Shown here one piece after another: positions 35,197 through 47,210 of a stretch of 64,000 nucleotides of DNA. Each line of letters starts with the position of its first letter. The stretch's first letter is position 1. Position numbers and translations under genes: made by a program. The notes below the pieces were generated by a model. It was not told the origin of the DNA and did not search any database. It worked only from the letters and a program-made list of their open reading frames with translations. The DNA is from a virus, in IMG/VR virus record IMGVR_UViG_3300003322_000128, positions 1 through 64,000 of that record; one strand, given 5' to 3'.

Positions 35197-35527
35197 GTAA
35201 AACCCGGGCGAAAGAAATTTCGCCCAAGCTTGCAATTTTGCCAAAAATTATGACCATCGTAACAGCAAATTCTGTGGCAGTTTTTTGGACCATCGTAAAG
35301 GGGTTCCCGGCGAGTCGGGAATGTCGGACATGCCCCGCTTCGCGGGGCTTAGCCCGTGTTTGTACCAATTTGATAGTGTTTGTACAAATATGTACCAGAA
35401 TGTCCGATTTGCCCAAGGCTAGTCGGCAAGGTGGGAAACTTTACCAAACCGTGACCAAAAAACCTTCCGTGACGTGCTATCGCGCGATAGGATGGCGCTA
35501 CGCGCCACCCAAACAGGAGGTACCAAA

Positions 35528-35782
35528 ATGGCCAGGATTACGAACAACAAGCACGTTATGCACTGGAGCGGCGAGACTGTCACCATTACCCGTCGGTTTC
35601 TCAAGTCGGGCGCCGTGCGCGTTCGTGTTGTTGTGGCTGAATCATTCAATGGTACGGAGCGTTTGAACGAATACCGCGATTACGTTGACATGCACAAGGG
35701 TGATGCTGTATATGCTCGACACATCAAAAAGTTTGAGCGTGCAATTGAGTCAGCCGCTCGCGAAGCTTGGAACGCTCGTTAG
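35528..35782 (+). CDS. hypothetical protein
   Basis: AGGAGG RBS; terminator 35795-35822. Confidence 0.7.
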   Translation: MARITNNKHVMHWSGETVTITRRFLKSGAVRVRVVVAESFNGTERLNEYRDYVDMHKGDAVYARHIKKFERAIESAAREAWNAR

Positions 35783-35849
35783 GCATACCTAACCAGGGAG
35801 CCGGACAACCGGCTCCCTTTTCTATGCCTGCTAAAAGGTTGAATTCTGT

Positions 35850-36134
35850 ACATCCACAGCTGTGGATAAACCTGTGGATAACTTCGCTACTCTCTGCAAT
35901 GTTACTTTACAGTATGTGAGAAAAGCTCTGTACGCCCTTCTAAGAGCCTCCCAGGGATGCCAATAGGCGACCACCCCAGGACACCCGCGAAAGGCCGTTA
36001 GACGCGATTTTCACGTTGTGTAGTATCTGATGGAGTGTCAGAGAACCAACGAAAGCGCAGGTCAGACACTGTTTTTCAATCTGACAGCGTGTCAGGTTAC
36101 CGGCCAGTGGTCACAGACTGCTGACTGTGGATAA
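35850..36134. promoter_or_regulatory. DnaA-box cluster
   Basis: TGTGGATAA at 35861, 35873 and 36126; imperfect opposite-strand ACATCCACA at 35850. Confidence 0.7.
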
Positions 36135-36347
36135 CTTTCTTTACCTAAACGTTACGAAGACACGCCGACATAGGGGTTGACAATCTTTAAAAAATTTGCA
36201 TAGGGGGAAAAGCCGGCCACTTAGGTAAAATTTTGGTAAAGAAAATCAGAAATGGTTGACACAGACTGAGAGTGCCTGTATTTCGCGCACACTCACACAC
36301 TCGCCGCATGTTGGGAGCGGCTAGGTTACTCGCGAGTTAACTAACGA

Positions 36348-36363
36348 TGTGACGCACGTCACA
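36348..36363. promoter_or_regulatory. CRP-type site
   Basis: Perfect TGTGA-N6-TCACA. Confidence 0.55.
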
Positions 36364-36469
36364 CAAATAGCATGGGAAAGGTTAGGCATGCTAAACATGG
36401 CCTCTGACCTGCGAAAACTCACAAAACCGCAGGTCAGAGCATAGGCTAGTGTTTACCTCAGAACGAACG

Positions 36470-36536
36470 GCCCGGAGGAAAGCCCCGCAAGGGGCGAGTA
36501 CAAAGGAAGTCGCGGTTACTTGAGAACTAAATAGCG
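36470..36536 (+). promoter_or_regulatory. rRNA-operon-leader-like antitermination element (boxB hairpin plus boxA)
   Basis: GCCCGGAGGAAAGCCCC-GCAA-GGGGCGAGTACAAAGGAAG...GTTACTTGAGAACTAAATAGCG; matches my recollection of Streptomyces rrn leaders. Confidence 0.7.
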
Positions 36537-36539
36537 GGA

Positions 36540-36870
36540 TTCAGAAACACATTACGCACAAGGAAACTCGCGGGTCACTGCCTAGAGGTCTAGCTAGGAA
36601 ATCACCCCTTACATTCTGCGAGTTGAATTGACATTCTCGGCACTTTGCCAGGATTAGCGAACGGGCGGTTCTTCCCTTTCCGATATGCCAGGAAATATCG
36701 ACCGTCGAATATAGTGCGATTCCTTTTGGGATAGCGGTAGATATCCAATGCCACTAAAGGGATTCAAGTAGCGAAATCCAGCGGGTGTTTTGTTTGTCAG
36801 TCGAAAGTGCGCCGTGTCCCGATTATCTAGGGACTGTGGCTTTAGACGCTTACCCTTTCGAGCGTCTAGT
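36540..36870 (+). ncRNA. candidate large structured leader or ncRNA
   Basis: No credible + strand ORF; nested helices (see findings). Confidence 0.55.
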
Positions 36871-37306
36871 GTCCACAAAGGAATTAGGGAAGAAAGTGAG
36901 TCATCATGACGACTGCCGCTCCTGCCAAGAAGACTGCCGCCCCGCGCAAGCGGGCGACTAAGAAGGCTGTCAGCACTCCTCAGACGGCCGAACAGACGAC
37001 GACTGTGTCTGTTGTTGACCCGGACGTCTACGTGCCCCCTACGGGGCTTGCAGAGGGTTTCCAGAGTGATGGGTCCGGCCCGCTGTTGGATGACCGTCTG
37101 ACTCCGCGTGCGCTGGAGAACCTGACAGAGCTTGCCACGGACGGAAACACGAACACGGCCCGAAAGTACTGGATTGCCGTGCTGGCAAAGTACGGCGTCA
37201 CGGTTCCTTTTGTGCCGGTTGACGAAAGCGAGTAAAACCGCCGCGCAAAACAACTGAATAGCAATTCCCAAACAAACAACCCCCTAATTCCTCTGCGGAC
37301 ACTAGA
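36865..37306. repeat. 25-bp inverted repeats (23/25 match) flanking one gene
   Basis: TCTAGTGTCCACAAAGGAATTAGGG (36865-36889) and CCCTAATTCCTCTGCGGACACTAGA (37282-37306). Confidence 0.85.
36906..37235 (+). CDS. hypothetical protein with histone-like AKKTAAPRK N-terminus
   Basis: First ORF of the putative early block. Confidence 0.7.
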   Translation: MTTAAPAKKTAAPRKRATKKAVSTPQTAEQTTTVSVVDPDVYVPPTGLAEGFQSDGSGPLLDDRLTPRALENLTELATDGNTNTARKYWIAVLAKYGVTVPFVPVDESE

Positions 37307-38922: not shown

Positions 38923-39102
38923 ATGCGTACCTGCACCGTGAACGGCCGGACGGGCATCATCACTGCACAGAACGGTAAGAGTGGCGTTCCCGCCACTCAG
39001 GTTTTCGTTCTGTTCGATGACAACCGTCCGACCGAATCGGATGCTGCATGGTTCGACGTGTCCGCCGTTCTGCCCACGGGCATGGTGACTGTCACGTTCT
39101 GA
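38923..39102 (+). CDS. small SH3-like protein
   Basis: AAAGGGG RBS. Confidence 0.6.
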   Translation: MRTCTVNGRTGIITAQNGKSGVPATQVFVLFDDNRPTESDAAWFDVSAVLPTGMVTVTF

Positions 39103-39761: not shown

Positions 39762-40094
39762 ATGCTTATTCAGATTCTCGACATTCTCTCTCGCCAGATG
39801 CGGGGTCAGTCACTTACGACTGGTCTTGAAACGGCGCGAGAAATTGAGGCCCTGGTTAGGGAGACTTCCCCTAAGTCTCCCGTTCGTTCGAATCACTCGG
39901 ACGAGATTCCGCTTTCGGTCGATATGATTCGCGCGACTGCATGGGCCGAGCGGGCTTTCAATTCCGATGATTTGACGAATTACAAGATTCGTGCAATCAA
40001 GGAAATCCGCACGAATTGGAATTTGGGCCTTAAGCAGGCTAAGGACATTGCCGATAACGTTTACGGTTCGGCGCCTAAGTCCTATTGGGACTAG
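39762..40094 (+). CDS. protein with a ribosomal bL12 (L7/L12) C-terminal-like domain
   Basis: KIRAIKEIRTNWNLGLKQAKDIAD. Confidence 0.7.
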   Translation: MLIQILDILSRQMRGQSLTTGLETAREIEALVRETSPKSPVRSNHSDEIPLSVDMIRATAWAERAFNSDDLTNYKIRAIKEIRTNWNLGLKQAKDIADNVYGSAPKSYWD

Positions 40095-43373: not shown

Positions 43374-43401
43374 TCCCCACACCCTTTTTGGGTGTGGGGA
43401 A
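43374..43401. terminator. hairpin or terminator at the convergence of the + and - blocks
   Basis: TCCCCACACCC-TTTTT-GGGTGTGGGGA. Confidence 0.6.
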
Positions 43402-46718: not shown

Positions 46719-46937
46719 TGCTACTTCCTTTCTCGGAAGAGCCTTACAATTTCCTTATTGATTTTCTCAATTGCTTCGCGTGCCCTGCGCATACCAAGTT
46801 CATCGCCTGAATTTCTTGCGGCCTCATACTTGGTTGCCTGGACTACCTTATCTTGCTTGAGATTTTGAAGTGTTTTCTTTCTGGACATAAAAATGCCGCT
46901 GTGAATACAGCGGCGGGTCTCCTTTTCTATTCACAAG

Positions 46938-47010
46938 AGCCTAGTGTGAGAATCGAACTCACGACCTCTTCCGTACCAAGGAAGCGTTCTTCCACTGCAA
47001 CTAACTAGGC
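46938..47010 (-). tRNA. tRNA-Thr(GGU)
   Basis: GCCTAGT/ACTAGGC acceptor, TT-GGT-AC loop, GTTCGATT T arm. Confidence 0.88.
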
Positions 47011-47061
47011 AAGTATAAGCTTGCCGGTATCAAGAAAGGAGAATAAAAAGATACCGACCAG

Positions 47062-47133
47062 AGCCAAATAACGGATTCGAACCGTTTTCTCATCTTTACG
47101 AGAGATGCGTTTTTCCTATTAAACTAAGCTGGC
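47062..47133 (-). tRNA. tRNA-Thr(CGU)
   Basis: GCCAGCT/ATTTGGC acceptor, CT-CGT-AA loop, GTTCGAAT T arm. Confidence 0.85.
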
Positions 47134-47138
47134 AAGAG

Positions 47139-47210
47139 AGCCGCCTGGGGATTCCGAGACCCCGACCTGTGCTTTACAAGAGCACTGCTCTGCCTCTGAG
47201 CTAAGGCGGC
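47139..47210 (-). tRNA. tRNA-Thr(UGU), atypical T arm
   Basis: GCCGCCT/AGGCGGC acceptor, CT-TGT-AA loop; T arm GGGGT-CTCGGAA-TCCCC. Confidence 0.8.

Follow-up and report, generated by a model that had tools for sequence, protein, structure and literature searches.

The window analysed here is a 64,000-nucleotide stretch (positions 1 to 64,000) of IMG/VR record IMGVR_UViG_3300003322_000128, a 98.8-kb virus record that is about 77% complete, and the virus is a Streptomyces siphovirus of the Loccivirinae (Stanwilliamsviridae). The preceding genes end at a terminator-like hairpin (35795-35818), followed by an ORF-free gap of 1 kb (35920-36905), which holds the structured RNA described below; a 109-codon gene, gene 1, begins at 36906. 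An earlier reading of the DNA, made from the sequence only, had found no credible sense ORF over the RNA. This agrees with the 11 related phage records, all of which have a gap of 1.0-1.8 kb without an annotated gene at the same place and no annotated CDS over 35920-36905, and with the aligned copies, which are full of 1-2 nt indels. The operon of small co-directional orphan genes ends at a strong bidirectional terminator (43374-43400) and includes one terminator-like site, at 38979; a terminator scan found no such site between the structured RNA and gene 1. The features of the locus are as follows.

36177-36182, + strand: second TTGACA, putative promoter element
36256-36284, + strand: putative promoter, TTGACA-17 nt-TATTTC
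36447-36452, + strand: TAGTGT, putative -10-like element of rrn type
36482-36495, + strand: boxB-like hairpin GCCCC-GCAA-GGGGC with a GNRA loop; aligns with hairpins of the Streptomyces rrn and gntR-DTE leaders
36519-36538, + strand: boxA/boxC-like element CTTGAGAACTAAATAGCGGG, predicted loading site for host Nus factors
36542-36554, + strand: unpaired CAGAAACACATTA between the box elements and P1, near-invariant in the alignment
36555-36811, + strand: P1-closed domain of 257 nt; P1 pairs CGCAC (36555-36559) with GTGCG (36807-36811)
36565-36624, + strand: H1, a three-tier hairpin (tiers 36565-71/36618-24, 36572-75/36604-07 and 36581-85/36594-98)
36627-36801, + strand: core, an irregular long stem P2-P3-P4 topped by the branches P5 and P6, from covariation counts
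36627-33/36795-801, 36636-48/36781-92 and 36651-58/36771-79, + strand: P2, P3 and P4
36665-70/36700-05, + strand: P5
36719-26/36756-63, + strand: P6, with an inner stem (36729-33/36742-46) and the conserved loop GCGGTAGA
36816-36834, + strand: P7, hairpin GTCCC/GGGAC (36816-20/36830-34), from alignment and covariation
36843-36868, + strand: P8, hairpin TAGACGCT/AGCGTCTA (36843-50/36861-68), from the alignment
36862-36890, + strand: 5' arm of the bracketing helix; overlaps both P8 (3' arm) and the Shine-Dalgarno region AGGGAAGAAAG (36886-36896), the latter in part
36906-37235, + strand: gene 1, 109 aa, inside the bracketing helix
37281-37306, + strand: 3' arm of the bracketing helix, just past the gene 1 stop codon (RNAduplex, BLAST)

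A cluster of DnaA-box consensus words (35853-35885 and 36126-36136; TTATCCACA / TGTGGATAA) is conserved in all related phages, and relatives carry additional iteron-like repeats upstream (GACCATCGTAAAG; GTTGAACGTTCAAC; GATTGTAGCAATACAA); the cluster may mark an origin or a promoter region under DnaA control. In TunaTartare (L005:452-877) and Forrest (L006:391-816) an endonuclease VII/HNH gene lies directly upstream of the DnaA-box region, and the iteron-like repeats are replaced. The conserved non-coding block at 35900-36095 has about 70% identity to a stretch in the 18-kb Streptomyces phages Forthebois and RickRoss, which in Forthebois sits under a 'DNA polymerase' annotation. Positions 36401-36438 hold a perfect 12-bp hairpin (CTCTGACCTGCG...CGCAGGTCAGAG), which could be an operator or a 5'-leader RNA element; the word CTGACCTGCG recurs (also at 36057-36067) and is kept in Wakanda, Moab and BillNye, twice in the last. 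Within the same operon as gene 1, a 110-aa ORF (39762-40094, +) has a near-threshold match to the C-terminal domain of ribosomal protein L7/L12 (24.3 bits with a cut-off of 25.9, E 4e-5). ARAGORN reported nothing at the structured RNA and three tRNA-Thr genes at 46937-47210 (-), with anticodons GGT, CGT and TGT; the Sham record (L003:3822-4218) names the corresponding tRNAs tRNA-Gly(ggt), tRNA-Arg(cgt) and tRNA-Cys(tgt), the anticodon apparently having been taken for the codon.

The fold was derived from an alignment of 15 copies, 13 of them distinct, with a mean identity of 65%. Aligned were the window, Kenrey, Sham, TunaTartare, Forrest, Gilson, MeganTheeKilla, Faust, Blueeyedbeauty, Annadreamy, Beuffert, Wakanda, Ankus, Byblos and one IMG/VR contig. 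RNAalifold returned nested long-range helices, from which a set of 57 base pairs was curated; standard pairing occurs in 95.6% of their cells over the 13 distinct sequences. Both sides have changed in 27 of the 57 pairs, compared with 9.4 +/- 2.1 in shuffled alignments (0 of 500 reach 27) and 4-7 when each partner is displaced by 1-3 columns. The covariation score of 0.315 compares with 0.159 for shuffled and 0.04-0.075 for slid partners. As the structure came from the same alignment, the identical RNAalifold pipeline was run on control regions of the same phages. It yielded 30 compensated pairs at the structured RNA and 16 on its reverse complement; among the controls, there were none in gene 1 and one each in gene 2 and the upstream non-coding region of DnaA boxes and promoters. 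The cells contain 79 G-U and 8 A-C combinations, and pairing falls to 85.7% on the opposite strand; the large excess of G-U over A-C indicates an RNA, not a DNA site, and places the fold on the + strand, in the same sense as the flanking genes.

The minimum free energy (MFE) z-scores are at chance level (-1.16 for the + strand, -0.74 for the - strand, -0.52 for the P1-closed domain), so that stability alone is no evidence and the support for the fold is purely comparative. In the seven closer relatives conservation stands at 55-81% for the domain, 42-65% for gene 1 and 37-63% for gene 2; in Wakanda all three lie at 38-48%. The large structured RNA proposed from the sequence was thus borne out by covariation: judged from the alignment, an RNA of about 330 bases is conserved and genuinely folded, on the + strand. 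To our knowledge, structured RNAs of at least 250 nt with comparable covariation are rare, and almost all known ones have proved functionally important.

An alternative holds that the inverted repeats act in the DNA, as cruciforms or protein sites of a replication origin beside the DnaA boxes. DnaA-box words are indeed clustered 400-1000 bp upstream, where relatives also possess iteron-like repeats, but the ratio of G-U to A-C cells, the poorer pairing of the other strand and the roughly halved number of compensated pairs on the reverse complement all point away from DNA. Nested long-range helices with multi-branch junctions are unlike DNA sites, and the upstream DnaA/promoter region itself has its single compensated pair. 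A role in the DNA is accordingly regarded as extremely improbable.

P1, which closes the domain, is 5-7 bp long, occurs in at least 7 sequence versions with 5 of 6 pairs changed on both sides, and is recovered by the single-sequence MFE fold. All words quoted in the sequence-only reading are present at their places, and five of its six pairings are real or partly real. The hairpin AACTCGC/GCGAGTT around GGGT/ACCC and CCTAG/CTAGG (36565-36624) was confirmed as H1, whose shape is shared by 9 distinct versions folded singly and whose 3' internal loop contains a conserved ACATT. The pairing ATTCCTTT/AAAGGGAT (36719-26/36756-63) covaries, being replaced elsewhere by GGATAT/ATATCC, ACCCG/CGGGT or TTCCTTT/AAAGGAA. 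The hairpin TAGACGCT/AGCGTCTA likewise stood: it is invariant in 11 phages, has other, still paired sequences in Ankus and Wakanda, and keeps its pairing with a differing sequence in Comrade and Moab. GTCCC/GGGAC stood too, being compensated (GGGGAA..TTCCCC in Annadreamy), but its GCCGTG/CTGTGGC extension is uncompensated in relatives. CGATAT/ATATCG stood in part: it can form in the window, but relatives have another 3-bp hairpin there, and ATATCG is a conserved unpaired/P5 segment in them. The long-range pair of GCACTTT (36640) with AAAGTGC (36804) fell, as its 5' word does not change, its 3' word does so freely, and each covaries with another partner. The true covarying partners are CGCAC (36555-59) with GTGCG (36807-11), and GGCACTTTGC with GCGGGTGTTTTG, GGCACTTTGC being part of the long irregular stem.

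The covariance model of the core (model R1) scores 124.5 bits on the window. Beuffert has a quite different P2-P4 sequence, and its single-sequence fold yields the same shape. Long unpaired stretches are near-invariant, namely CAGAAACACATTA, TTAGCGAA, TCTCTCCCT, ATATCGA and AGTAGCGAAAT; for CAGAAACACATTA, neither RNAalifold nor the alignment offered a covarying partner. ACATT occurs twice at conserved unpaired sites, before P1 (36549-36553) and in the 3' internal loop of H1 (36611-36615). The lambda nutR spacer required for NusA action is CACAUU (PMC2724277), and the likeness of ACATT to it may be coincidence. Two further pairings were set aside: a conserved pyrimidine stretch (36671-36680) would pair perfectly with the Shine-Dalgarno of gene 1 in the window, which relatives do not keep, and an RNAalifold alternative joining the P8 loop to the Shine-Dalgarno region has no covariation.

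Upstream of the domain, the TTGACA boxes are kept in 11 of 12 aligned phages, and TAGAGT/TAGTGT segments are similar to host rrn leader contigs. The putative early promoter of the sequence-only reading is thus favoured by the conservation of its boxes, but a strict sigma-70 consensus scan found no promoter site in the region, and the timing 'early' is unsupported. The stem of the boxB-like hairpin varies in sequence among relatives with its pairing kept. Within the boxA/boxC-like element, GAACTAAATAG resembles what we take to be the NusA-binding boxC 11-mer of mycobacteria; boxC of M. tuberculosis is a specific NusA site (PMC2724277). The boxA element matches actinobacterial rrn leaders: among the loci listed for the related 16-mer TTTGAGAACTCAAYAG, 77 of 80 belong to Actinomycetota, in S. 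phytohabitans and M. rhizamassiliense the 16-mer precedes 16S by about 160 nt, and positions 36472-36541 are 73% identical to a Streptomyces rrn leader over 70 nt. RNA-seq contigs of true rrn leaders also match the phage boxB region. By these similarities, the leader at 36470-36543 is taken as a genuine copy of the boxB-boxA-boxC module of the actinobacterial host. The picture of an RNA in the position of rRNA also fits, in that a covarying helix closes the domain beside the box elements, as the leader-trailer helix does for 16S; an Rfam search found no rRNA genes in the window, and protein genes follow the leader.

The best host match to the phage leader, in S. panaciradicis (80% over 74 nt, E = 2e-9), falls outside any rrn operon and precedes, by 60 nt, a gntR-DTE RNA (Rfam RF02989, 101.8 bits, locus L254). 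At this one, integrative element-like locus the RNA is divergent from a GntR/UTRA regulator, and a DUF6284 gene comes after the RNA. In the phage, the genes upstream are co-directional, and the one upstream ORF scanned (35238-35666) gave no Pfam hit. The gntR-DTE RNA occurs in 3 of 41 Streptomyces genomes sampled, and 4 of 4 gntR-DTE loci (L254:1501-1782, L260, L262, L263) are preceded at 55-63 nt by a boxB-like hairpin and TTGAGAACTGAACAG, with the leader motif TTGAGAAYT.AA.AG. The ends of the gntR-DTE consensus look complementary (CGGGUG/CACCCG). The phage domain has no match to the RF02989 model at the gathering score or at E <= 10, the L254 locus (101.8 bits) serving as positive control. 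One rrn-like leader thus heads two unrelated structured RNAs, in phages and at patchy chromosomal loci. The link gives the orphan Rfam motif gntR-DTE its first context and suggests a cassette common to phages and chromosomal elements.

Downstream of the domain, the bracketing helix of 26-28 bp (RNAduplex dG about -40 kcal/mol; BLAST finds the inverted repeat too) is present in 18 of 18 phages tested, with very different sequences in Kenrey, Wakanda, Comrade, Moab and Ankus. Comparison of these sequences shows that the helix covaries and that it and P8, which have a strand in common, are mutually exclusive. The gene-1 product has a basic, Lys/Arg-rich N-terminal half that is disordered over its first ~60 residues, and a conserved C-terminal helical hairpin; the structure model (pLDDT 63) contains a two-helix hairpin only. 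Homology searches placed the protein in no known family and detected no homology to anything named. About 10 metagenomic homologues of gene 1 were found, and a related-locus search seeded with gene 1 gave nothing.

This arrangement would suit a sensor or operator of gene 1, in which binding of a ligand or protein to the domain shifts the equilibrium between P8 and the bracketing helix and thereby controls translation, or cleavage by an RNase, at the gene-1 ribosome-binding site; the binder would possibly be the basic gene-1 product itself, by analogy with lambda N on its own leader. In every phage P8 and the bracketing helix have a strand in common, and the helix overlies some of the Shine-Dalgarno region. 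Conserved sequences at the junctions, as seen here, are typical of RNAs that bind a ligand or protein, and the disordered Lys/Arg-rich half of the gene-1 product is in keeping with the idea. Comrade and Moab, however, lack the domain and keep the P8/bracket switch, which is therefore independent of the domain; P7 stands between the domain and P8, and no known riboswitch class matches in Rfam. Control of gene 1 through the domain is judged improbable.

The domain is single-copy in the genome and was found in about 21 phage records and one UViG. The IMG/VR pattern scans added one new homologue (L015) and three phages already known. A metagenome pattern scan matched 106 stretches, and the flanking motifs stood in none of the 80 matches listed, which were taken as chance matches. 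A search with model R1 found no copy in the loci of Moab, Comrade, BillNye, Circinus and DekoNeimoidia. All five retain gene 1 with its bracketing helix, as well as the DnaA boxes, and have different leaders that are without boxA; TTGACA promoter words are present among them only in Moab, Comrade and DekoNeimoidia. Two other ORF-free leaders, some 400 and 770 nt long and lacking both boxA and the domain, occupy the same slot (Moab L125:2690-3122, Comrade L127:2500-2917, BillNye L128:2260-3025) and end in a P8-like hairpin and the same bracketing helix of gene 1. On this comparison, the leader slot is best described as an exchangeable cassette.

Neither a sequence search nor model R1 found a host copy of the domain, the latter in 5 Streptomyces/Actinacidiphila genomes without a positive control and therefore weakly. 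Searched against Rfam, the window gave gathering-score matches to tRNAs elsewhere only, and the RNA fits no described family; no covariance model of GOLLD, ROOL, HEARO, riboswitches, tmRNA, 6S or RNase P matched. Two Rfam matches in 35850-36950, of E about 5, were attributed to chance. No paper on this RNA was found in the literature, and no RNase III or NusB gene in the 98.8-kb record, a weak negative at 77% completeness. As a new RNA family the element can be used to annotate Loccivirinae genomes, in which the 1-1.8 kb gap is now blank or mis-called. An example is Annadreamy gene 251 (L011:1698-2087), whose annotated GTG start lies inside the structured RNA, just 5' of P8 at GTGGCTTTAGACGC, so that the CDS crosses P8; the ATG at L011:1767 is the start kept in all relatives. 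Beuffert gene 259 (L012:1311-1505) also falls within the leader.

Contigs near-identical to the locus were found in a plant metatranscriptome (one study, two samples). One of 299 nt covers 36516-36814 with 4 differences, and others cover 36496-36638 and 36655-36804; none from the same study lies upstream of the leader or on gene 1. Their depth is 2-2.5, and contig ends do not equal transcript ends. The contigs give a weak hint that the part from boxA to P1 is the stable or most abundant RNA of the locus. Runs X2 and X7 were rejected as expression evidence, being probably DNA of related phages. The free, stable ncRNA proposed in the sequence-only reading therefore has these low-depth contigs of one study in its favour, but no terminator follows the RNA, which makes it the 5' portion of the downstream genes' transcript.

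Excision could still release boxA/boxC and the P1-closed domain as a stable RNA of about 300 nt acting in trans, where it could, for instance, sequester Nus factors of the host or some other RNA-binding protein as the phage takes over, or be a scaffold; an rrn-type leader would then be present because a long untranslated RNA, like rRNA, needs protection from Rho. The contigs match this extent, boxA/C and the domain always co-occur and are absent together, and the leaders are interchangeable in the slot with gene 1 constant. The invariant unpaired segments and the apical loop GCGGTAGA suggest a binding partner, and gntR-DTE, behind the same leader, is classed by Rfam as an sRNA. Against these points, stable fragments of an mRNA leader would produce similar low-depth contigs, the 5' end of the long contig lies 39 nt upstream of P1, P1 of 5-7 bp is alone too short for RNase III, and a terminator after the domain is absent. 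On balance a trans-acting product is considered rather unlikely.

A wider form of the idea is that Streptomyces mobile elements, namely these phages and the carriers of gntR-DTE, express trans-acting 'mini-rRNAs' of their own from a captured rRNA-operon leader cassette. Such RNAs would be stable and highly folded, made under Nus antitermination, excised at leader-trailer-like helices, and active on the host in trans, for example through titration of its Nus factors or of proteins for ribosome assembly. They would form a new class of effector RNA, with the 257-nt domain as one member. This extension is doubtful.

Preferred tentatively and by a small margin, at a probability of roughly 0.45, is a reading in which the domain acts in cis, as the folded leader of a transcription unit that resembles an rRNA operon and is Nus-antiterminated and processed. 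Host RNA polymerase would initiate at the putative host-type promoters and transcribe the boxB hairpin and boxA/boxC, which by sequence are copied from a Streptomyces rrn-type leader. By analogy with the established mechanism of rrn, T7 and lambda, these elements would load host NusB, NusE, NusA and NusG, and the modified polymerase would resist termination, above all by Rho, across the untranslated RNA and the genes behind it. The P1-closed domain, with its three-tier hairpin and capped irregular stem known from covariation, would fold while tethered to the modified polymerase. Once gene 1 is transcribed, the exclusive choice between P8 and the bracketing helix may serve processing, or act as a translation switch at the gene-1 ribosome-binding site, or both. 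The domain itself would protect and organise the antiterminated unit in cis.

The cis-acting leader is favoured by the + strand fold, the host-like leader, the continuity into gene 1 without a terminator, the covarying bracketing helix, and the stronger conservation of the domain than of gene 1 or gene 2 in the seven closer relatives. The boxA of T7, the box and helix layout of rrn, and the position of the gntR-DTE leader at operon heads point the same way. Weighing against it, the phages without the domain keep gene 1 and the bracketing helix, so that gene 1 does not need the domain; the presence of boxA follows the domain and not the genes, which better fits a self-contained RNA 'payload'; the RNA-seq contigs fall on the boxA-to-P1 part alone; and the long invariant unpaired stretches suggest a specific partner, which a mere protective leader would not need.

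Among known systems, GOLLD, ROOL and HEARO are likewise phage-borne RNAs with complex, covarying folds; the RNA described here differs in being much smaller and limited to one phage subfamily. The gntR-DTE RNA, filed by Rfam as an sRNA, is also a structured RNA behind the same leader at an operon head; it is patchy in its distribution and adjoins a regulator, as in a mobile element, whereas the phage domain is about twice as long and of another architecture.

Lambda N is a small basic protein, and the phage gene-1 product is likewise small and basic; its role as an N analogue is unsupported. As in the T7 early operon (host promoters A1-A3, boxA, RNase III sites), in which boxA stands behind the early host promoters (PMC3709561), the phage boxA stands behind promoters of the host-polymerase type. 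Long double-stranded elements surround the first genes in the phage, as in T7 and in the lambda nutL-N leader. Unlike in T7 and lambda, the phage boxB/A/C elements are near-copies of the host's own leader and not a phage-specific nut site, and a closed multi-helix domain of 257 nt is interposed.

The closest likeness in layout is to rrn operons, in which boxB/A/C are combined with leader-trailer helices (PMC10250234). Like the phage locus, the rrn leader consists of promoters, boxB, boxA/boxC and then a long-range helix closing a folded untranslated RNA; the phage and Streptomyces leaders are 73-80% identical over 70-74 nt, and the second long helix of the phage encloses gene 1 as the 23S helix encloses its unit. 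The differences are that the phage RNA is without similarity to rRNA or any host sequence, that its P1 is much shorter than the rRNA leader-trailer helices, and that the next unit is a protein gene. A testable idea follows, that actinomycete phages and other mobile elements borrow the machinery that transcribes, folds and processes rRNA and apply it to RNAs and early genes of their own. In its order of leader, closing helix and then another helix-enclosed unit, the layout of the locus mimics the host rRNA operon.
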